Shown here in pieces: positions 1,550-61,616 of a stretch of DNA of 64,000 bases (the first letter of the stretch is position 1; each line of letters begins with the position of its first letter). Source of the stretch: Spirochaetia bacterium (GTDB lineage Bacteria > Spirochaetota > Spirochaetia > CADAEX01); assembly GCA_017446885.1 (NCBI GenBank), contig JAFSOR010000020.1:102769-166768 (forward strand). The letters are read 5' to 3'. The notes beneath the pieces are model-generated. The model ran no database searches. It was not told where the DNA came from and was given only the letters and a program-made list of their open reading frames with translations. Position numbers and translations under genes: made by a program.

Positions 1550-2905
1550 ATGTACTTTGAGAGAAAGATTGACAGGTGGCTTATTGACTGGAAAAACAGG
1601 AAAGAAAAATCTCCTGCACTGATTGTGGGCATAAGACAATGTGGCAAGACAGAGAGCATCGAGCATTTTGCCAGAAACTATAAAAAGCTGGTCAAACTTA
1701 ATTTCTGGGATAACCCTGAGTATTGTTCCGATTTCGATGGGGAGCTTGATGTCGATACATTGATATCTAATATCTCATTGCGTTTTCCTTCTGTCCAGAT
1801 TACCCCAGGCGACACGCTGATATTTTTTGACGAGATACAGGAGTGTCCGCGTGCACGACTGTCATTCAAGAATTTTGAGAAAGATGGAAGATATGATGTC
1901 GTCGGCAGCGGTTCATATTTAGGAATCAATGGATATGTGGTTGGCGATAGTACACCTGCACCAACTGGGTATGATGATGTTTACCGCATGTATACGATGG
2001 ATTTCGAGGAGTTTATGTGGGCGCTTGGATACAGCAGGGAACAGATTTCCGCAATGGAAGAATATTTCAGTACAAAAAAACCGGTTCCTGAACCTATGCA
2101 TAAAAAATTCAAGGAGCTGTTTATTAAATATGCTTGTGTCGGAGGATTCCCGAAAGCTGTAAAGGCCTATGTTCAAAACGATTATAATCTGATGGAGGCT
2201 GTCAGGGTTACAGAGAGCACAGTATTTGATATGAAGACTGATTTCGGCAGGAGAAAAGGAAAGGATGGTAAGCCGCTGTTCAAACCAGCTGAGGTGGCAA
2301 GAATCCAGAATGTCTTTGAGCTGATACCCACATTCCTGGCAAAGGAGAATAAAAGGTTCATCACATCGAAGATAACGGGCGGATCATCAAAAGAAAAGGT
2401 CGATGCCATCGAATATCTGCAGCAGGCACATATTGTCAATAAAGTCTACAATCTGGAATCTCCTTCTCTGCCGTTGAAAGGCAATATCATAAAATCACAG
2501 TTCAAGCTGTTCCCCGAGGATATCGGAATTGTAACATCAATGTATGGACTGGATACTGTCATTGCCATGAACAAGGGCAACTTGGGACAGGGGAAGGGGG
2601 CTATATATGAATCTCTGGTCTTTGATTCTTTTAACAAAGGGGAAATTGACACATTTTATTTTGCAAAGGAATCGGGTCTGGAAATAGATTTTGTCATCTG
2701 CTATGACAGTCATTCGTATCTGGTGGAATCTAAATCAAAAAATGGCAATACCAAGTCAAGTAAAACAGTTATGGCACATCCTGAGCATTATGGAAAGACA
2801 AAGCTTATAAAGATAGGAGATTACAATGTGGGGGAGGAGGGAGATATTATGACAATCCCTCATTACATGGCTTTTATATTGGCAAAATCTAAAATATTAT
2901 TATAA
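1550..2905 (+). CDS. AAA+ ATPase, DUF4143/COG1373 family
   Basis: Walker A GIRQCGKTE near the N-terminus; ~450 aa, typical of the AAA_14+DUF4143 family; strong RBS. Confidence 0.75.
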   Translation: MYFERKIDRWLIDWKNRKEKSPALIVGIRQCGKTESIEHFARNYKKLVKLNFWDNPEYCSDFDGELDVDTLISNISLRFPSVQITPGDTLIFFDEIQECPRARLSFKNFEKDGRYDVVGSGSYLGINGYVVGDSTPAPTGYDDVYRMYTMDFEEFMWALGYSREQISAMEEYFSTKKPVPEPMHKKFKELFIKYACVGGFPKAVKAYVQNDYNLMEAVRVTESTVFDMKTDFGRRKGKDGKPLFKPAEVARIQNVFELIPTFLAKENKRFITSKITGGSSKEKVDAIEYLQQAHIVNKVYNLESPSLPLKGNIIKSQFKLFPEDIGIVTSMYGLDTVIAMNKGNLGQGKGAIYESLVFDSFNKGEIDTFYFAKESGLEIDFVICYDSHSYLVESKSKNGNTKSSKTVMAHPEHYGKTKLIKIGDYNVGEEGDIMTIPHYMAFILAKSKILL

Positions 2906-2950: not shown

Positions 2951-4120
2951 GTGAAAAAAGGACTCATAATAGCGGCTGCTGTTCTGCTTGCCTTGCTTGC
3001 AGCGACTGGTGTTATGATTCAAAGACAGCAGAAAGAAGACTCACCCCCTGTACGCATAATCGAAGATACTGCAGACAAAACCCCCTCGTCTGATAATAAT
3101 GATGCACTTTTGAATGCCCAGAATGCACAGATAGAGGAGCAGCGTGCCCGGATTAAGGAGCTTGAGGATGCCCTGGCCCAGCATGAGTTTGACTATGCCG
3201 CCCTTAAGGCCGAACGCGACAGGCTTAAGAGGCAAAGTGCCGATATAGAGGAACAGAACCGAGTTCTCCGCGGCAGGAACAATACCCTTAGAGACGATTA
3301 CGACACCCTTAAGCGGGACAGCGGCAAAGAGCTTGCCGACCTGCGCGCTCAGATAGATGATCTAGACCAGAAGCTGTCGGAGCAGGAGTCTGAGCATATT
3401 GCACTTCTGGCACAGATAGAGGAATACAAAGCGCAGCAGGCGGCCCAGGTCGAAGAGGCCGAGCGTGCACAGGCTGCCGAGCGTGCACAGTTGGCTGAGT
3501 CCGCACAGTTGGCAGAACCAGCGGAGCAAGCACAGGCTACCGAGTCCGTACAGGTGGCAGAAGCTGCCGAGTGTGTACAGGCTGCCAAACCAGCACAGGC
3601 CAACCTGCCTGGCCAGAGCCGGAACATAGTAGGGTTAAAGATAGGTGGCTCTGACATAGACCTGGAGGCAACCATAGCCCTTATGCCGCACTGGTTCCTT
3701 ATCGCAGACCTTGCCGCTGTAGAGACCCCCGACGACTTTGTGGAAGAAGAATTCCCCGGCCTTACAGCCAAGCACGCCTTCCTTTATACCGCACTGCTGG
3801 GAACAGGATTCAACTGGCGCTTTAACTCCCTGCAGCCTCAGCCCAACTTCTATATAAGTACTATGATAGGCCCTGCATGGTATGTGTACAACAACGACAC
3901 CGGCAGCGACCTTTATAAGACATATTCGGGCGGAGACGACTACAAGACATACCTTTTGTGGCGTACATCCATAGGCTTTGACATGATACTGTATAAGAAC
4001 CTTCAGTTTACCACAGACCTCAGCTTTGATTATATGAAGGATTATTTCTTTACACCGCACCTGACTGTGGGACTCCAGTGGAGTTTCAGCAGCAGCTGGG
4101 CCCTTTTCGGCAAAAAGTGA
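2951..4120 (+). CDS. secreted/outer-membrane protein with long coiled-coil and C-terminal beta-rich domain
   Basis: GTG start; signal/TM segment; ~200 aa heptad-like coiled coil including eight 6-aa (18-nt) tandem repeats; aromatic-rich C-terminal domain. Confidence 0.6.
   Translation: MKKGLIIAAAVLLALLAATGVMIQRQQKEDSPPVRIIEDTADKTPSSDNNDALLNAQNAQIEEQRARIKELEDALAQHEFDYAALKAERDRLKRQSADIEEQNRVLRGRNNTLRDDYDTLKRDSGKELADLRAQIDDLDQKLSEQESEHIALLAQIEEYKAQQAAQVEEAERAQAAERAQLAESAQLAEPAEQAQATESVQVAEAAECVQAAKPAQANLPGQSRNIVGLKIGGSDIDLEATIALMPHWFLIADLAAVETPDDFVEEEFPGLTAKHAFLYTALLGTGFNWRFNSLQPQPNFYISTMIGPAWYVYNNDTGSDLYKTYSGGDDYKTYLLWRTSIGFDMILYKNLQFTTDLSFDYMKDYFFTPHLTVGLQWSFSSSWALFGKK
3458..3601 (+). repeat. 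8 x 18-nt imperfect tandem repeats encoding AERAQA-like hexapeptides inside the CDS
   Basis: Units gccgagcgtgcacaggct, gccgagcgtgcacagttg, gctgagtccgcacagttg, … read directly. Confidence 0.8.
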
Positions 4121-4121
4121 T

Positions 4122-4511
4122 ATGGCTAAAAAGATATTCTGGATAATTACAGTTTTACTATTCTCTTTATTCTTATGCCTTTCCTGCGACGATGGAAGCC
4201 TGGTGTTCAAGAACGAGATGAGCGTAGTTACAAGCCGTGGCAGTATGGGCGAGATAACTGTAATAGTAGTAAAGGCCAATGCGGCATCAAAAGGCTACAA
4301 TTCCATAAGCCCGCTTCCAGACCCGGAGTTTACATATACCGTCGACCCCGATCCGCTCCCAGACGGAGTATCGCTTACCGGCGAGCTTGAAAGAGATTCA
4401 GGCGAACTTGAAGGGACATATATCATACGGCAGGGGACATTGGCACTCTCTGGAACAAAGGCAAGCAAATACACGCTCAAATTTTATACCAACATCTTTA
4501 CAATTTATTAA
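4122..4511 (+). CDS. small lipoprotein (lipobox LSCDDGS)
   Basis: Signal peptide plus a lipobox cysteine. It sits 1 bp after the previous gene's stop, and a degraded paralog lies at 10661-10879. Confidence 0.6.
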   Translation: MAKKIFWIITVLLFSLFLCLSCDDGSLVFKNEMSVVTSRGSMGEITVIVVKANAASKGYNSISPLPDPEFTYTVDPDPLPDGVSLTGELERDSGELEGTYIIRQGTLALSGTKASKYTLKFYTNIFTIY

Positions 4512-4695
4512 AGAAAAATAAAGTTTCTTTTTTTTGCGATATATTTCTACCAATGTTGGTAGAAATGTTTTATAACGTTGGTAATTCAGTATATTTTAAG
4601 TTTATTTTATTAAAATATAAAAATAACTATATCATTATAATATAAGTATTTATCAAAAATTTTTAAAAATATTTAAAATTTCTTACACGTTTCTA

Positions 4696-4724
4696 TTGAC
4701 AAAACAGTAACGGTATAGTAATGT
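4696..4724 (+). promoter_or_regulatory. promoter TTGACA-N17-TAATGT in a conserved module (ctattgacaa…tagtaatgttggta)
   Basis: A near-identical ~40-bp module occurs again at 61083-61116, upstream of another lipoprotein gene. Confidence 0.5.
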
Positions 4725-4906
4725 TGGTAGTGTGAGAAGAAACGATAGTTATTAATATTTAATAAACTGTCGATACTGAAAAAGGAGGGAAAATAAAAAT
4801 TCTACATTTATTTACTTTAGTAAAATAATTAATTATTATTATTGTTAGTGCATAAATATATATTCCTATATATTTTTTTTGATTTTATTATTTTAAGGAG
4901 AAGATA

Positions 4907-6208
4907 ATGAAAAGAGGGTTTTTAATGATGACAGTACTTGTCGTATTGGCAGTGCTGTTCGCATCGTGCTCCAACGGTATGAGCGAAAGTTCTGCAGAAG
5001 GCGGCTCGTCTGCGCAGAAAGTAATGGTAAGCCTTGGGGTTGATGTAGAAGGAAGTGCATCGCAGAAGGCTATAAGCGGCGATACTGATCTTAGCAGTCT
5101 GACATACTGGTATTGTGCTACCCATAACTGGGTTCAGGACAGACCGGTACATGGTGACACAGATGGAGAGTTCATCCTTATTCCAAACTACAGCACAGGT
5201 GCAGCTCCAAAGGGTTTGGGATATTTTACAGCAGGCTCTTGGACATTTGATGTAGAGGTACGCAAAGGTTCAGATAAAATCTATTCTGGCTCTGTAGATT
5301 ATAATATTTACACTGGCCATGCAAGCCCAGTAATCACAGTAACTCCTGATGGTACCGGCACAGGTTCGATATCTATTACAGTAAAAGTTCCGACAACAGG
5401 AGAACATGAGTCCCTTGCTGTTACCGGTACTGGAACTGCAGGTGCTGTAACAATGACCCGCACTGGAACTGCCGCAGGCCTCACCACATTTACTGGAACT
5501 AGTGCAGGTATTACTCCTGGTGCATACACCTTCATGTTCCGCTATACTGATGAGTCTGGAGCAGTGACTGAGGGCACAGCACAGGCAGTAACTATATTCG
5601 CAGGACAGACTTCCACTATTTCTGGTACAATCGACGGTGGAAAGTGGCATTCAAGCCAGATTACAGTCAATGCACCTGGAATCACAGGATATACCCTTTC
5701 TGCAGCTGCTGACGCTGTTTCAGTAGCCCCAAACACCAACCTTGTATATACAGCTTCCGCTACTTCTGCCCAGGGTAATACAATTAAGTATCAGTGGTTT
5801 GTAAACGGCGTTTCCCAGGGCGATGCTTCTACTACAGCTACATATACATTCAATGAGGAAAATTATGGAATGTATTATATTACTTGCTCTGCAATCGATG
5901 AGACAGCTAAAGTTATTGCTTCTGAGGATGGGGAGAACCCTCATATTTATGCATCACTTTATGTTGAGGTTGGCTACAAGGTGACATTTGCAACTGGTAC
6001 AAACGGAACTGTTGGATATGGAACAAATTCAAGTGCAACCACAATCTTTGCAGCTGGTGATATTGTATCTATGTCTGTTGAACCGGCATCTGGCTATCAT
6101 GTTGGTACACTCAGCCCAGCAGGAGAGTACGATGATGCTTCGCATACTGCTACATTCTATATGCCGGCAGCAGATACAGAGTTCTCTGCAACATTCGAGG
6201 CAGATTAA
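4907..6208 (+). CDS. surface lipoprotein, paralog of the N-terminal domain of the next two genes (lacks DUF285 repeats)
   Basis: Lipobox FASCSNG. Its N-terminal ~120 aa align with the 6334 and 8502 products (…YWY/FYYRATPQW…HG.TD…LIPN…G.WTFDV…). Thr/Gly-rich Ig-like segments follow. Confidence 0.7.
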   Translation: MKRGFLMMTVLVVLAVLFASCSNGMSESSAEGGSSAQKVMVSLGVDVEGSASQKAISGDTDLSSLTYWYCATHNWVQDRPVHGDTDGEFILIPNYSTGAAPKGLGYFTAGSWTFDVEVRKGSDKIYSGSVDYNIYTGHASPVITVTPDGTGTGSISITVKVPTTGEHESLAVTGTGTAGAVTMTRTGTAAGLTTFTGTSAGITPGAYTFMFRYTDESGAVTEGTAQAVTIFAGQTSTISGTIDGGKWHSSQITVNAPGITGYTLSAAADAVSVAPNTNLVYTASATSAQGNTIKYQWFVNGVSQGDASTTATYTFNEENYGMYYITCSAIDETAKVIASEDGENPHIYASLYVEVGYKVTFATGTNGTVGYGTNSSATTIFAAGDIVSMSVEPASGYHVGTLSPAGEYDDASHTATFYMPAADTEFSATFEAD

Positions 6209-6333
6209 GCAGATTTAGGTTTTGGTGTGGCACCGGGGCGGGGTTTCCGCCCATGGTGTCCCACCATTCAGAGGCACCCGGAATGGCGCCCCTGAACGGT
6301 GGTAACCGAGAGGAATATTAAAAAGGAAAAGAA

Positions 6334-8505
6334 TTGGAGAATAAAAGGTTGAAGGCGAAAGTAAGCAGCATAATTGCAGCAGTTTCTCTTATAACAGCAT
6401 TATTTTTCTGTATTCTCTCATGCGACAACGGCTCTGTATCCGACTCCTCTGCTAATAAATCAGATGGTCTGGTCAATGTTTCTCTTACCGTAGGGGAACA
6501 GACTTCAGACAATCAGAAAAGCATTTCGGTGGACAGCAGCATTGACCCTGCAAACCTGAAATTCTATTACAGGGCAACTCCCCAGTGGAGCCAGTCCAGC
6601 CCGATTCATGGCTCTACAAATAACCAGTTTGTACTTATTCCTAACTTCAGTGCAGGCTCTCCAGTCTCCCTTGGAAGTTTCACTGCCGGCCAGTGGATTT
6701 TCGATGTTCAGGTCAAGAATGGCTCTACCCTTGTTTACCAGGGCACCTCTGATGTGACCAGCATCTATCAGGGCAATGTGTCTGTAAGTGTCATGGTGAG
6801 CAAGATTATCCAGCAGGCTTCTGGCTCTGTAATTGTAAATGTCACAGCACCTACTGTGGATGCAGAGGCATTGACCGTAGGCTGGACAGGAACTGCAAGC
6901 AGCTCTGGAAATGCTGTTGCCACACCTCTGGGAGATGGAACCACTCAGTTCTCATATTCCACCAGCGCACTTTCATCAGGATACTATACATTCACATTAA
7001 ACCACTCCTCCACTGGCAGCGGTGCGGCGGTAGCTGTTGATCTGCGGTCTGGCGAGAGAGTGGAGATAACCGGCCACCTTGAGAACGGGGTATGGCAGGT
7101 TGGCTATGTCACTGTTAAAGTTTATACTATAACTATCAACGCAGAGGGATGTGTGGTGAATGCAAATACCACATCTGCGGCAGCAGGCGATAAAGTTACA
7201 TTCTATGCAACCCCATTTACAGGCAATGTGCTGGACGAGATAACTGTCACCTGGGCAGGCGGTACAATCATTCCTGCTGTTTCAGGGGATATGTACACAT
7301 TTACCATGCCAAGTGGCGATGTTTCTGTTACAGCATCTTATTCCGGAGTGAGCGCTGACATAGTTGTCTCCCATTTCCGTGCCATATTCAAGATACTGCA
7401 CGACGATAATCCTCTTGCCACATCCTTCGGACGGTCTCTTACAGAGCCTTCTGATGATGTTGACGAGTATTTCGAGATAAAGAATGTGAAGATGTGGTAC
7501 GATTCTGACAGCAGGAAAATATGCTGGCATTCAGATGACGGCACTATGAAGTTCCAGCCTGGCTCCCTGGCCGGCCTGTTCAAGGACTGCAGTGCTTTCA
7601 CCGCCATAAGCCTTGAGGGTATGGATACTTCTGCGATTACCGATATGTCCGGTATGTTCCAGAACTGCACTGCGCTGGCAGACCTCAATCTGGGTAATAT
7701 GGATACAGGCAGTGTAACTGATATGTCCAGGATGTTCATGGGTTGCTATGCTCTTACTGGCATTGATTTCGGCAGCAATTTCGACACTTCCAGCGTGACA
7801 GATATGTCCTATATGTTCTCAAGTGCAGATATATCTCACTCTGGCCAGCCTCCTAAGATGAATTTCCAGAGCCTTGATGTGAGCGGCTTTGACACTTCTT
7901 CTGTAACAAACATGAGTCATATGTTCTACCAGTGCTCCAACGCAAACCTTACAGTTTTGGATGTCTCCGGGTTCAGGACCCCGCTTGTAACAGATATGTC
8001 TTATATGTTCGCCTGCTATATGAATCAGCCATCCTATGTATCTGTTCTTGATCTCAGTGGCTGGGATTTCACAAACGTGACAACTGTGGCCAATATGTTC
8101 GACCGGTGCGAGTATCTGGATACTGGCTTGACATTCCCGGATACAACCAACTTTGCAAGCTTGACCACTATGACATATTTCTTCAGCCAGTGCCTGGCTC
8201 TTACCCCTGCAACATTTACCAATATTGTGTCTACCTGGACTTTTGCAGGGCAGGATGATTATGAGAAGAATGTGTATGGTATAGGCCATGATGCACCGAA
8301 TAAAACGCTGTTCGGAAACGCCGAGAACAATAATAAGGGTCAGAATACCGGAGCCAACTATATCTTCCGTGAGAATACCATGACTGGTTCCGGAAAGAAA
8401 TTTGCCGTCCGCCAGTCATATACGACAAAAGACGGTAAGAATCTGTGGATAGGTGGCGGAACCAACAGTAAGCATGCCCGGTTGACAATGGAGGAGAGCA
8501 TATGA
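6334..8505 (+). CDS. surface lipoprotein with C-terminal DUF285-type (~27-aa 'TDMSxMF') repeats
   Basis: Lipobox LSCDNGS; repeated LDVSGFDTSSVTNMSHMF / TDMSYMF units; BspA/Mycoplasma-DUF285-like. Confidence 0.75.
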   Translation: MENKRLKAKVSSIIAAVSLITALFFCILSCDNGSVSDSSANKSDGLVNVSLTVGEQTSDNQKSISVDSSIDPANLKFYYRATPQWSQSSPIHGSTNNQFVLIPNFSAGSPVSLGSFTAGQWIFDVQVKNGSTLVYQGTSDVTSIYQGNVSVSVMVSKIIQQASGSVIVNVTAPTVDAEALTVGWTGTASSSGNAVATPLGDGTTQFSYSTSALSSGYYTFTLNHSSTGSGAAVAVDLRSGERVEITGHLENGVWQVGYVTVKVYTITINAEGCVVNANTTSAAAGDKVTFYATPFTGNVLDEITVTWAGGTIIPAVSGDMYTFTMPSGDVSVTASYSGVSADIVVSHFRAIFKILHDDNPLATSFGRSLTEPSDDVDEYFEIKNVKMWYDSDSRKICWHSDDGTMKFQPGSLAGLFKDCSAFTAISLEGMDTSAITDMSGMFQNCTALADLNLGNMDTGSVTDMSRMFMGCYALTGIDFGSNFDTSSVTDMSYMFSSADISHSGQPPKMNFQSLDVSGFDTSSVTNMSHMFYQCSNANLTVLDVSGFRTPLVTDMSYMFACYMNQPSYVSVLDLSGWDFTNVTTVANMFDRCEYLDTGLTFPDTTNFASLTTMTYFFSQCLALTPATFTNIVSTWTFAGQDDYEKNVYGIGHDAPNKTLFGNAENNNKGQNTGANYIFRENTMTGSGKKFAVRQSYTTKDGKNLWIGGGTNSKHARLTMEESI

Positions 8506-10643
8506 GCAGGAGGATCATGTCTGTCTTTGTATTGTTATCTTTCCTCTTCCTGGCTGGATGCGACAACGGCTCGGTATCTGAACCTGCTGTCTCTAAATCA
8601 AGCGGTCTGGTCAAGGTCTGCCTTACTGTGGGCAGTGATTCTTCGGAACTTCAGAAGTCTGCGGCAGCTGACGGCAGCTACTGGACAAGCTTTACATATC
8701 AGTACAATGCAGTTCCCCAGTGGATAGACCCGGCAGGCACCAGAATCCATGGGGCCACAGATTGGATACCAATAAGCTATTCCGCAGGTATGAGCCTGGG
8801 ATACTATTCTCCTGGACAGTGGGTGTTCGGAATACGGATAAAAAATGGCGCCAATGTCATTTACGAAGGTTTCTCCGATGTCATAAATGTAGAGAACACC
8901 TCTGTGAATGTGGATGTTCTGGTGAGCAAGCTGGTTACCGAAGCTGTGGCCGGTTCTGTCCGCATAGCAGTTACTGCTCCTTCTGCTGTGGATGATGAGT
9001 TAAGCATCTCTTACACTGGCGATGCTGCAGGCGGTCCTTTTACAGTTGCCGCCGAAAGTGCATCGGACAGATATCCTTTTGAATATACAGTGACAGGTCT
9101 TTCTGCCGGGACTTACACCTTTACATTAGCCCATTCGGCAGGCGATATCGAGGATGATATAGAGATTGTCATGCCGGCAGGAGCTATGGCAGTGATAAGC
9201 GGCCATCTGGATAATGGAATATGGCAGCTTGGTTACACTACTGCAAATGTCTATTCTGTCAATGTCTCAACCACCGGCTCAGGCAGCGTATCTTCAAATG
9301 CATCCTCTGCAGCTGTGGGGGACAGAGTCTCTTTCCGCGTGAAACCATCGAACAACTCCAGGCTCAACTCCCTGTCTGTGACATGCGGCGGCAGCAATGT
9401 CTCCTATACCACCAGCGGAAGCCTCTATTCATTCATCATGCCCGAGGGCAATGTATCTATAAGTGCAGAATTTGAAGAGGCAGATACCGAGATTGATATA
9501 AACCACTTCAAGATTATAGTTCAGTCCATGTACGACAGCAACCCAAGTGCCACCTCTTTCGGCAGGTCCAATTCTTCCCCGACAGGTGCAGAGTATCTGG
9601 GCATAAAAGATGTGCTTGTATGGTATGATTCAGTAAATAACAAAATCTGCTGGTATTCCGAGAGCGGCAATAACACCCTTAAATTCAAGGCAGGTTCCAT
9701 GGCCAGCTTCTTCAAGGACTGTGTCAGATATGTATCTATAAGCCTGGAAGGTATGGATACCTCAGAGGTGACCAGCATGGCCAGCATGTTCGACGGCTGC
9801 AGTGCTCTGACCTCAATTGATTTGACCGGCCTGAATACTGCAGAGGTGAGAAACATGTCCAAGATGTTCTATGGCTGCATAGGGCTTACTTCGCTTGTGC
9901 TGGACACAGATAAAGATGTCAATGGAAAGTTTGTCAACTTCAATACTGCCAATGTGACAGATATGTCCTATATGTTCTCAAGTACTGCTCTTGATGGATC
10001 TGGTGCGGATACAAAGAAAATGAATATTGAGAGTCTGGATGTAAGCGGTCTTGACACTTCCAGCGTCACAAATATGAGCCATATGTTCTATCTTTGCTCC
10101 AACAGCAATCTTACAACATTGGATGTATCAGGCTTCAATACTTCAAAGGTAACAGATATGTCCTATATGTTCGCCTGCTGGAGAAATTTCCCAAGTTATG
10201 TGACAGCAGTTGACATGAGCGGCTGGGATTTCTCCAAAGTCACAACAGTAAACAGAATGTTCGACCGCTGCGAGCGGGTAGTCATATCATTCCCGACCCT
10301 CACAAAGCTGAGCAATATAGAAGATATCCTTTACTGGTTCAGCCACTGCTTTGCCATGACACCTGCACGGCTTGCAACAGTAATTGGATCATGGGACTTC
10401 TCTGGACATACCAATGTTTCTGCCCTTTCAGCACTTTTTGCAGTATGTGATGATAATAATGGTGAGGTTTCTCCAAACAACAGAATCATGACAAACGATA
10501 TGAATAACTATAAGTCAACAAGACAAGTATTTGATACTCATCAGAACAATACTGTAATCACAAAGCTTTATGTCGGTGGTAATAATCTTTCAAATGTCAG
10601 GGATCAGCGTCTTACAACTGTTCAAGATCCTTATAGCCCTTGA
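8502..10643 (+). CDS. surface lipoprotein with DUF285-type repeats (paralog of 6334..8505)
   Basis: Its start overlaps the upstream stop (ATGA). It has lipobox LAGCDNGS and the same domain order and repeat motifs. Confidence 0.75.
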   Translation: MSRRIMSVFVLLSFLFLAGCDNGSVSEPAVSKSSGLVKVCLTVGSDSSELQKSAAADGSYWTSFTYQYNAVPQWIDPAGTRIHGATDWIPISYSAGMSLGYYSPGQWVFGIRIKNGANVIYEGFSDVINVENTSVNVDVLVSKLVTEAVAGSVRIAVTAPSAVDDELSISYTGDAAGGPFTVAAESASDRYPFEYTVTGLSAGTYTFTLAHSAGDIEDDIEIVMPAGAMAVISGHLDNGIWQLGYTTANVYSVNVSTTGSGSVSSNASSAAVGDRVSFRVKPSNNSRLNSLSVTCGGSNVSYTTSGSLYSFIMPEGNVSISAEFEEADTEIDINHFKIIVQSMYDSNPSATSFGRSNSSPTGAEYLGIKDVLVWYDSVNNKICWYSESGNNTLKFKAGSMASFFKDCVRYVSISLEGMDTSEVTSMASMFDGCSALTSIDLTGLNTAEVRNMSKMFYGCIGLTSLVLDTDKDVNGKFVNFNTANVTDMSYMFSSTALDGSGADTKKMNIESLDVSGLDTSSVTNMSHMFYLCSNSNLTTLDVSGFNTSKVTDMSYMFACWRNFPSYVTAVDMSGWDFSKVTTVNRMFDRCERVVISFPTLTKLSNIEDILYWFSHCFAMTPARLATVIGSWDFSGHTNVSALSALFAVCDDNNGEVSPNNRIMTNDMNNYKSTRQVFDTHQNNTVITKLYVGGNNLSNVRDQRLTTVQDPYSP

Positions 10644-10660: not shown

Positions 10661-10879
10661 ATGGTAAGAAGAGTTTTTGCATTAACTGTTTTATGCCTCT
10701 TGTTGAGCCTATTGCTCTCCTGCGATGGTGGCTTTCCTTTCATAAGCGAAATGTGGGAAAAGTCCGGGAGTTCAAGCAGCAAGGGTACTTAGCATACAAT
10801 AATTGTCAAGGCAGAGGCGGCGGCAAAGACTTTAGGCCAGCCCGACCCGGAGTTTACCTACACAATGGTTCGCCAGTAG
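10661..10879 (+). pseudogene. decayed paralog of small lipoprotein 4122..4511 (in-frame TAG after codon 43, early stop)
   Basis: Translation MVRRVFALTVLCLLLSLLLSCDGGFPFISEMW…KGT*…VKAEAAAKTLGQPDPEFTYT… is collinear with the 4122..4511 product (LSCDDGSLVFKNEM…VKANAASKGYNSISPLPDPEFTYT). Confidence 0.6.
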
Positions 10880-60872: not shown

Positions 60873-61084
60873 ATCTAATTTATATCAGATATTCCAATAA
60901 TGATTAAACACAAATCAAAAGAAAGCATATTTTAGTCTGTAAATCCATTACCCACGTTTCTAAATATGGGTATTTTGCGAGTTTCTTGTCAGTTTCTAAA
61001 AAAAAATTAAATTTAATAAGTTTTTGTCTCGTAAACACTTACAAAAAAGTTTCAGAAAATTGTAAAATTTCTTCTGCGTTACTA

Positions 61085-61113
61085 TTGACAACTTAGTAAC
61101 GTTGTAGTAATGT
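61085..61113 (+). promoter_or_regulatory. promoter TTGACA-N17-TAATGT, second copy of the conserved lipoprotein promoter module
   Basis: ctattgacaa…agtaacg…tagtaatgttggtaatgt, near-identical to 4693-4728; 9-bp inverted repeat AGTAACGTT/AACGTTACT at 61095-61103 and 61141-61149. Confidence 0.5.
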
Positions 61114-61163
61114 TGGTAATGTAAACGGAAACGTTGGTGAAACGTTACTGAAAGGAGAGGAAA

Positions 61164-61616
61164 ATGAGAAACTTCGGTAAGATGGTTAAGATGATGGTTG
61201 CAGCAGTTATGATGAGCGCTTTCTTCTGCTCTTGCAATGCAGCAGGCGGACCTAGCTACGAGGCTTCCGAGGTTTCACATTCTTCCAGCTATGAGACAAA
61301 CAATCAGAACGGTCCTTCAACAGGTTCCGGTATCAGCATCAAGTTCAAGCAGATGAGCATCACCGCAGAGACAGACGGAAACAGAGACAAGATTTCTTCT
61401 GGCGAATCCCTCCAGATCAGATGCTATGCAAACGAGGACAGCGAGCAGATCGGAATGTGCGACTGGTACATCGGCGGAACCAAGGTTTCATCAGGCACAA
61501 CATACACATTCTGCCAGAACAACCCAGGCTTGTACAACGTAACCTGCATCGCCGCAGACAGCTCAAGCAACCCAACATGCATCGACTGCCAGCAGCTGAT
61601 GATTGAGGTTTGGTAA
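61164..61616 (+). CDS. small lipoprotein (lipobox FFCSCNA)
   Basis: Signal peptide plus Cys; RBS aggagagg. Confidence 0.6.
   Translation: MRNFGKMVKMMVAAVMMSAFFCSCNAAGGPSYEASEVSHSSSYETNNQNGPSTGSGISIKFKQMSITAETDGNRDKISSGESLQIRCYANEDSEQIGMCDWYIGGTKVSSGTTYTFCQNNPGLYNVTCIAADSSSNPTCIDCQQLMIEVW

Follow-up and report, generated by a model that had tools for sequence, protein, structure and literature searches.

A conserved five-gene cassette encoding three paralogous lipoproteins, two of them with DUF285/PARCEL repeats, and a probable outer-membrane partner in uncultured Spirochaetia

Through in silico analysis of a 64,000-nucleotide stretch of a Spirochaetia bacterium genome (contig JAFSOR010000020.1; the whole stretch is called the window below), three consecutive lipoprotein open reading frames (ORFs) at positions 4907-10643, designated g1, g2 and g3, have been identified as the core of a five-gene cassette that is conserved in uncultured Spirochaetia. 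The trio keeps the same order and number in related cassettes, and a conserved structured RNA element separates the first gene from the other two. With moderate confidence, the encoded proteins are read as a co-expressed, heteromeric, outer-membrane-associated and probably surface-located complex of the adhesin type, and not as a family of variable antigens. The three genes are the following:

4907-6208, plus strand: g1 (from the ORF list), a 433-residue lipoprotein, NCBI entry MBR0318792.1 ("hypothetical protein").
6349-8505, plus strand: g2, a 718-residue lipoprotein with a TTG start, 100% identical to MBR0318793.1.
8502-10643, plus strand: g3, a 713-residue lipoprotein, MBR0318794.1, with a g2-like architecture and packed against the g2 stop codon.

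The GenBank entries MBR0318792-94 are identical to the window products and begin at 4907, 6349 and 8502. From its first TTG codon g2 would cover 6334-8505 (723 residues, as in the ORF list); the TTG at 6349, giving 718 residues, is backed by the alignment of orthologous intergenic regions, in which some orthologues carry an ATG two codons downstream. The stop codon of g2 and the start of g3 overlap in an ATGA, as a first-pass annotation of this DNA had noticed, and the NCBI start of g3 is likewise 8502; an alternative gene caller places it at 8517, 11 nt past the g2 stop. GenBank already lists g2 and g3, as proteins of a Spirochaetia metagenome-assembled genome, under the name "BspA family leucine-rich repeat surface protein".

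All three predicted precursors possess the features expected of a signal peptidase II substrate: a positively charged n-region, a hydrophobic h-region and a cysteine within residues 15-35. A lipobox pattern similar to PROSITE PS51257 matches g1 (LFAS/C, Cys21) and g3 (LAG/C, Cys20), and the g2 lipobox (FFCILS/C) deviates by a single mismatch, a cysteine at position -4. The lipid-bearing cysteine and the following Asp-Asn-Gly-Ser (DNGS) are invariant across 31 homologues.

Pairwise BLASTP comparison gave 42% identity for g2 and g3 over their full length, 36% for g1 and g2 over about 280 residues, and 31% for g1 and g3 over about 255 residues. Together with the lipobox patterns, these values bear out the earlier proposal of three paralogous lipoproteins. 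The conserved N-terminal module, put at about 120 residues in the first-pass annotation, is indeed common to all three genes, but it is about 255 residues long, since the alignments between paralogs span about 255-280 residues. An all-against-all BLASTP comparison showed 1:1 orthology; between the window and the related locus L082, identity was 68% for the two g1 proteins, 60% for g2 and 65.5% for g3. Across three loci compared gene by gene, orthologues are 57-68% identical, against 31-44% for paralogs; in every genome compared, identity is 40-44% between g2 and g3 and 35-41% between g1 and g2. The g1-g2-g3 trio was found in identical order, with a copy number of three, in 14 of 14 distinct related metagenomic cassettes, and no extra copy of any of the three genes was found in the 64-kb window. 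Because the trio is constant in every cassette and orthologues are closer to each other than paralogs are, the triplication is regarded as old and the copy number as fixed.

The best DNA tract shared by g2 and g3 extends over 258 nt at 73% identity, for which reason recent gene conversion between them was rejected. Among 21 g2 orthologues the repeat region described below has a mean identity of 68%, compared with 68-79% for the immunoglobulin (Ig)-like stalk, and nothing in these sequences suggests diversifying selection on the repeats.

The related loci (for example L082, L083, L085 and L104-L106) were obtained from exact-protein look-ups and from a metagenome scan with the g1 family; the statements on gene order cover those long enough to judge. 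A contig scan with the g2 family alignment, which was saturated by the motif VTDMSYMF, returned DUF285 sequences of unrelated gut and rumen taxa only (35-46% identity) and no syntenic spirochaete genome. In all judged loci the order is: gene for a coiled-coil outer-membrane protein (OMP), g1, g2, g3 and a gene for a small MBG_2 lipoprotein. This order persists where g1 has diverged to 29-43% identity. Contig and sample names of the related cassettes point to ruminant and other gut sources. In the window, the two partner genes are the following:

2951-4120, plus strand: coiled-coil OMP gene, 389 residues, with an N-terminal signal or anchor, a Q/A/E-rich coiled coil of about 170 residues and a DUF481-like, beta-rich C-terminus.
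4122-4511, plus strand: MBG_2 lipoprotein gene, 129 residues; PF18676 match at E=5.2e-7, 30.6 bits (cutoff 25).

Spacing within the cassette is also maintained. The gap between g1 and g2 is 128-160 nt in the four most divergent cassettes and, according to which g2 start is taken, 125-140 nt in the window; g2 and g3 are separated by at most 13 nt in other cassettes, except in the duplicate pair L104/L105 (135 nt as called), and g3 and the MBG_2 gene by about 8-25 nt.

The product of 2951-4120 matches DUF481 (PF04338, an outer-membrane beta-barrel family) over residues 278-385 with E=4.6e-4, and its C-terminal domain is probably an outer-membrane beta-barrel, as judged from sequence. All 106 homologues of this coiled-coil protein are metagenomic, and every one with an organism label is from Spirochaetia; many carry recorded PF04338 matches and one is named "DUF481 domain-containing protein". 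Orthologues with 48-49% identity precede g1 in L082, L083 and L085, and the family is always encoded beside DUF285 lipoprotein genes. Elsewhere the coiled-coil protein has 356-426 residues and the MBG_2 lipoprotein 124-147; the window MBG_2 protein is 52-53% identical to those encoded after g3 in L082, L083 and L085. Directly upstream of the coiled-coil gene an AAA_14/DUF4143 ATPase gene is located in the window (1550-2905, plus strand) and in L106 (6123-7382), a cassette whose placement is otherwise different.

In several genomes a sister cluster lies just downstream of the cassette. It consists of a gene for a 141-147-residue lipoprotein, a coiled-coil paralogue (43-52% identical) and, following this paralogue, genes in which MBG_2 and DUF285 are fused (960-1026 residues). 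One or two such fusion proteins are encoded in each of the following clusters:

L083, 15035-19986: sister cluster.
L085, 13883-20097: sister cluster.
L104, 15371-19275: sister cluster.
L106, 17661-19251: sister cluster.

That the coiled-coil protein recurs beside DUF285 proteins and that MBG_2 is found fused to DUF285 is the main, indirect evidence that the cassette proteins may work together.

DUF285 (PF03382, cutoff 25) matches g2 with E=2.2e-33 (115 bits) and g3 with E=4.8e-29 (101 bits), and TIGR02167, the NCBIfam model "PARCEL repeat-containing surface protein" (cutoff 30), matches g2 with 6e-32 (108.9 bits, five stretches) and g3 with 2.7e-32 (110 bits, four stretches). Because both models match strongly, the repeats are not compositional bias, the outcome that would have undone the earlier assignment of a C-terminal DUF285 domain of the Mycoplasma/Listeria type. 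Neither model matches g1, which agrees with its description as a shorter paralog lacking the repeat domain. The other family proposed for the HMMER check, LRR_5 (PF13306, the leucine-rich repeat (LRR) family of BspA), gave no match to the window proteins at E<=0.1. A family profile reached LRR structures marginally at best (4fs7, E=0.014; TpLRR of T. pallidum, 6mlx, E=0.69), and a sequence search of the PDB with g2 alone found nothing. By these comparisons the repeat domain belongs to the DUF285/PARCEL type and is only distantly LRR-like.

The g2 protein is arranged as (i) the N-terminal module; (ii) an InlB B-repeat-like domain; (iii) a helix; (iv) a DUF285/PARCEL domain of about 7-8 repeats of 26-36 residues; (v) a C-terminal cap. 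The mid-protein domain corresponds to PF18998 (Flg_new_2, InlB-B-repeat-like), with E=1.2e-6 in g2 and 5.4e-10 in g3. In g1, the shared module with two Ig-like domains is followed by a PKD-like domain (PKD_3, E=6.7e-5, sub-threshold) and a B-repeat-like beta domain; the g1 family comprises 47 proteins only, none of them informatively named. The motif ..VT[DN]MS.MF recurs every 26-37 residues in g3 and, under the strict pattern, every 36-53 in g2, and the repeat-coding DNA contains six copies of a 49-nt unit at 63-88% identity. The length of the DUF285 domain varies by lineage (about 700 versus about 930-1100 residues). An AlphaFold2 model of g2 built on family alignments has a mean predicted local distance difference test score (pLDDT) of 79.6. 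Most of the C-terminal 380 residues score above 90, and this part forms a regular ladder with short strands every 13-15 residues. The g1 model is all-beta, with four sandwich-like blocks (pLDDT 75.6). Minus-strand antisense ORFs of 113-156 residues run across the repeat-coding regions (7338-7739, 7819-8289 and 9521-9862); overlapping ORFs are predicted for the progenitor palindromic coding sequences of the PARCEL type (PMC2996958).

For the N-terminal module no Pfam model exists. When 1.84 billion representatives were searched at E<=1e-3, a profile built from 16 sequences of the three families retrieved 536 clusters. In nearly all cases the module occupies residues 1-260 of a lipoprotein-like protein that is 330-1100 residues long and whose C-terminal part varies. 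Its best match among PDB sequences is to the tandem PKD domains of KIAA0319L (E=1.4e-4).

The second conserved component, which like the cassette around the three genes had escaped the first-pass annotation, is not a protein:

6218-6315, plus strand: intercistronic RNA element of about 95 nt at the 3' side of g1, with two adjacent G+C-rich hairpins.

The spacer between g1 and g2 (125-140 nt) is G+C-rich and folds with a minimum free energy (MFE) of -52 kcal/mol (z=-2.8). The element was found directly 3' of g1, as one copy per cassette, in 19 of 19 cassette sequences with downstream DNA (18 distinct); it was absent from the sister clusters and from the rest of the window. Covariance model scores are 89-116 bits on the plus strand versus 25-44 bits on the minus strand. 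In the model-based alignment 31 base pairs are formed, with 98% of cells paired; sliding the partners by 1-3 columns lowers this to 40-50%. In eight of these pairs both partners have changed (27 cells), and none of 500 shuffles reached the covariation score. The same structure, with 5-6 compensatory pairs, came out of an independent MAFFT/RNAalifold analysis. As several positions alternate between G:C or A:U and G:U, the structure fits the sense strand only.

The primary sequence of the element is also conserved. Mean pairwise identity in its core is 82%, compared with 65% for the last 300 nt of g1 and 73.5% for the first 300 nt of g2, and the loops and unpaired 5' and 3' flanks are nearly invariant too. 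The next stretch, 6316-6348, is a conserved purine-rich tail in which GGA occurs three or four times, finally as the g2 Shine-Dalgarno sequence. The hairpins (6229-6301) continue into UAACCGAGAGGAA with no T run and were not reported by the terminator scan; for want of a U-tract, an intrinsic terminator was rejected. A sigma-54-type promoter, suggested by GGCAC...GC within the element, was rejected by eye on account of wrong spacing, and the G:U covariation supports an RNA. Rfam 15 contains no family matching at gathering thresholds; at E<=10 only noise-level miRNA and snoRNA models appeared (13-16 bits). Our best guess is a sequence-specific processing, stability or translational control element that would uncouple g1 from g2-g3-MBG_2, and a CsrA-type protein is a candidate reader.

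Taken as a system, the cassette encodes an OMP with a coiled coil and a probable DUF481-like beta-barrel, three anciently diverged lipoproteins and a small MBG_2 lipoprotein. The products of g1, g2 and g3 would share an N-terminal tether and a stalk of two PKD-like Ig domains, on which g2 and g3 would hold out the InlB-B-repeat-like domain and the DUF285/PARCEL LRR-like domain, the presumed ligand-binding part; g1 would carry Ig-like domains only. A tightly packed message would serve for the translation of g2, g3 and MBG_2, with g1 set apart from these genes by the two-hairpin RNA, and this element may set the g1:(g2,g3) expression ratio through mRNA processing or stabilisation or through control of g2 translation. 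In this genome, g1 would be driven from a promoter-like module common to other lipoprotein genes.

Several points weigh against a surface complex of this kind. Treponemal lipoproteins are often periplasmic, so that surface exposure is not certain. Complex formation is deduced from conserved linkage and domain fusion, and the DUF481 score of the window coiled-coil protein (20.7 bits) falls just under the Pfam cutoff of 21.1. Foldseek matches are dominated by the Ig-like part, with no fold match confirming a DUF285 solenoid. The covariation statistics derive from related sequences, with one of the alignments fitted to the model, and the RNA element has no U-tract. An alternative explanation would be independent lipoproteins that share a display stalk and form no complex, like the surface glycan-binding lipoproteins of Bacteroides, with the hairpins acting as a generic 3'-end stabiliser or transcription stop. 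It would be favoured by the Foldseek matches of the g1 and g2 models, which include SGBP-B (6e57) and multi-Ig receptors (generic multi-Ig proteins in the g1 search), by the reuse of the N-terminal module with many payloads in its 536 protein clusters, and by the promoter-like site that g1 has for itself in other cassettes. However, the fixed order and tight packing of the trio persist across lineages in which g1 is down to 29% identity, which argues for interdependence of the three genes, and the conservation of the RNA primary sequence, loops and unpaired tails included, goes far beyond what a generic stabiliser would need. Independent lipoproteins are considered unlikely, while still the most serious competitor of the complex.

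Much less credit is given to a multigene family of surface antigens or adhesins that arose by recent tandem duplication and serves antigenic or phase variation. Three adjacent paralogs, the T8 runs within the leader of g1 and the difference in DUF285 length between species could be quoted for it, as could the variable surface lipoproteins of mycoplasmas, which are DUF285/PARCEL proteins (PMC2996958). Nevertheless, the copy number of three does not change in the related cassettes, orthologues are closer than paralogs, the paralogs share no near-identical DNA, the repeats are conserved among orthologues as well as the stalk is, and no long inverted repeats of the invertible-promoter type flank the leader. 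The copy-number comparison across relatives, recommended in the first-pass annotation, always returned three genes, and the expansion by tandem duplication read from the array there is largely refuted. About as improbable is an assembly resembling type V pili (FimA/Mfa-like), with cleavage after a Gln-Lys pair, polymerisation by strand exchange, g1 as the stalk and g2/g3 as tip adhesins. Its starting point is the g2 model, for which the top PDB matches in Foldseek are the type-V-pilin-like "putative cell adhesion proteins" of Bacteroides (3up6, 4k4k and 3ufi), Mfa3 (5nf4) and BF1861 (3sy6), with E from 4e-6 to 1e-2, probability about 1 and TM scores of at most 0.29. All three proteins are lipoprotein precursors, and a nearly invariant Gln-Lys (Q53-K54 in g1, Q56-K57 in g2 in the 718-residue numbering, Q51-K52 in g3) is located in a low-pLDDT loop directly after the first beta-strand, about 32 residues past the lipid cysteine. 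This position resembles the Arg/Lys maturation site of FimA and Mfa1, and the loop may be a site of proteolytic maturation; a structured RNA located behind the gene of the first subunit would also fit a ratio of major to minor subunits. Yet the top 50 Foldseek matches of the g1 model contain no pilin-like entries, and FimA/Mfa Pfam families match neither g1-g3 at E<=0.1 nor ten distant members of the module family at E<=0.01. It is because the g1 model does not reproduce the pilin matches and no pilin hidden Markov model matches that the probability of such pili is put so low. A wider scheme, hardly more probable and framed by analogy with the type V pili of Bacteroidota, would be an undescribed spirochaetal surface organelle. 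It would be built from a g1 stalk, DUF285-tipped g2/g3 adhesins and MBG_2, matured by Gln-Lys cleavage and assembled on the coiled-coil beta-barrel OMP. A sequence-specific intercistronic RNA of a new class would fix the subunit stoichiometry, with CsrA or another RNA-binding protein as a possible reader.

Compared to its relatives, the cassette of the window has a different setting. It lies between the AAA_14/DUF4143 ATPase gene and yebC-ruvCAB, whereas all other cassettes with a recovered upstream flank adjoin ymdB/rseC/rsmE/ctpB/lgt. The intact MBG_2 gene, elsewhere located after g3, directly follows the coiled-coil gene. Further features of this region and a related one are:

10661-10879, plus strand: MBG_2 pseudogene remnant with an in-frame TAG after 43 codons, cut off after ...PDPEFTYTMVRQ.
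4611-4744, plus strand: promoter-like module with TTGACA (4696-4701), a 17-nt spacer and TAATGT (4719-4724), then AATGTTGGTAG.
4543-4566, plus strand: palindrome ATTTCTACCAA-TG-TTGGTAGAAAT with 11-nt arms, then GTTTTAT.
61044-61616, plus strand: second promoter-like module and, downstream of it, a gene for a 150-residue lipoprotein, orthologue of the first sister-cluster gene.

The N-terminus of the MBG_2 remnant (SCDGGFPFISEMWEKSG...) matches the L083 and L085 orthologues, and tblastn with these proteins gave 52-55% identity across the stop codon (E about 1e-16). As a pseudogene is found after g3 and an intact copy upstream, the cassette has been rearranged in the lineage of the window.

The leader before g1 is 395 nt long with 19% G+C and two T8 runs (4528-4535 and 4873-4880), in agreement with the extremely AT-rich, poly-T-containing leader of about 400 bp noted earlier. 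Within it, the 134 nt at 4611-4744 have counterparts of 75-81% identity in other loci, located ahead of the gene for the coiled-coil OMP and ahead of that for the 141-147-residue lipoprotein; the invariant core is TTGACA-N17-TAATGT followed by AATGTTGGTA. A second such module at 61044-61133 is 78% identical over 90 nt to 4655-4744. The 150-residue lipoprotein gene near this module is not followed by coiled-coil or MBG_2-DUF285 genes. In other cassettes g1 has its own TTGACA-N17-TATTTT site, then GCAATGTTGG. The TTGACA-N17-TAATGT module is probably a promoter with a common operator-like motif. The motif AATGTTGG(TA) recurs a short way behind the TTGACA-N17-TAnnnT promoter-like sites that precede several lipoprotein genes (window positions 4722-4732 and 61111-61125, and upstream of g1 in L082-L110), and it is also present inside the palindrome (4552-4562); it may represent a common operator or regulon signature.

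The palindrome, reported at 4546-4563 in the first-pass annotation and linked there to the array, is real, and its arms extend to 11 nt (4543-4566). It lies 32 nt after the MBG_2 stop codon, with GUUUUAU next to it in the transcript, and the segment of the leader that other loci share does not include it. An operator of the array was rejected, as conservation of the leader does not extend to the palindrome and the MBG_2 terminator is expected at just this site. It is probably the intrinsic terminator of that upstream gene. A simple terminator scan did not flag it, and in the minimum-energy fold of 4512-4600 (MFE -16.7 kcal/mol, z=-2.9) the two arms do not pair with each other; a repeat further downstream is paired with part of the palindrome instead.

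The DUF285/PARCEL family was described by Roske et al. 2010 (PMC2996958), many of its carriers being animal-associated; spirochaetes are not mentioned there. DUF285 occurs widely, in many unrelated taxa of gut and rumen. Among the papers searched none deals with DUF285 in Treponema, the sole one with both terms being a study of Mycoplasma bovis in which Treponema occurs once. The g2 and g3 products share with the PARCEL/DUF285 lipoproteins of Mollicutes and Listeria (LppQ of Mycoplasma mycoides, Mbov_0838-type) matches to both models, the lipoprotein signal peptide, tandem repeats of about 26 residues with the signature ...S.VT.MS.MF..C, and an animal-associated niche, as reported for PARCEL carriers (PMC2996958). 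However, there are major differences. These relate to the diderm spirochaete host, the placement of the repeats C-terminal to an undescribed two-Ig module and an InlB-B-repeat-like domain, the fixed cassette of five genes, to which an outer-membrane protein and a conserved RNA belong, and the lack of both mobile-element association and hypervariability.

To the BspA/LrrA/TpLRR proteins of Tannerella and Treponema (PF13306), g2 and g3 are linked by the NCBI name, by the marginal profile matches to 4fs7 and 6mlx, by faint LRR_5/LRR_8 matches under DUF285 in homologues and by a presumed surface role in binding proteins or cells; they differ in the absence of a PF13306 match at E<=0.1, in the signature and length of the repeats, in domain order and in partner genes. 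With the internalins of Listeria they have in common a repeat-built binding domain, Ig-like spacers and a B-repeat-type domain (PF18998, E=1e-6 and 5e-10). In contrast to internalins, the domains run the other way round, from lipid anchor and Ig stalk to the terminal repeats, the repeat family is another one, and anchoring is by lipid and not by LPXTG or GW modules.

Intercistronic stem-loops are known to set product ratios within operons, as do the repetitive extragenic palindromic (REP) hairpins of malEFG, the hairpins of the puf operon and those after major pilin genes. Like these structures, the element described here consists of stable hairpins directly after the first gene of a presumed multi-subunit operon and has no U-tract. 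In contrast to them, its sequence is nearly invariant although the flanking proteins have diverged to 29-60% identity; it is single-copy per genome region and not dispersed, it has a conserved GGA-rich tail, and it belongs to no Rfam family.

Against this background the N-terminal module, the fixed five-gene cassette with its outer-membrane partner and the RNA element are new. The module of about 255 residues, an unannotated family of 536 clusters, is a candidate new domain family, and the RNA, in which covariation is clear and the sequence is conserved to an unusual degree, is a candidate for a new cis-acting motif. No major paradigm is changed, and the proteins were already named in GenBank. 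DUF285/PARCEL proteins are abundant in animal-associated microbes, their mechanism is little known, and no solved structure was matched by sequence in this analysis. In spirochaetes of gut and rumen the cassette now places them in a defined genetic setting, with a dedicated OMP partner, an MBG_2 partner that is fused to DUF285 in the sister cluster, and a fixed trio of paralogs, and a heteromeric adhesin complex thereby becomes a directly testable proposal.

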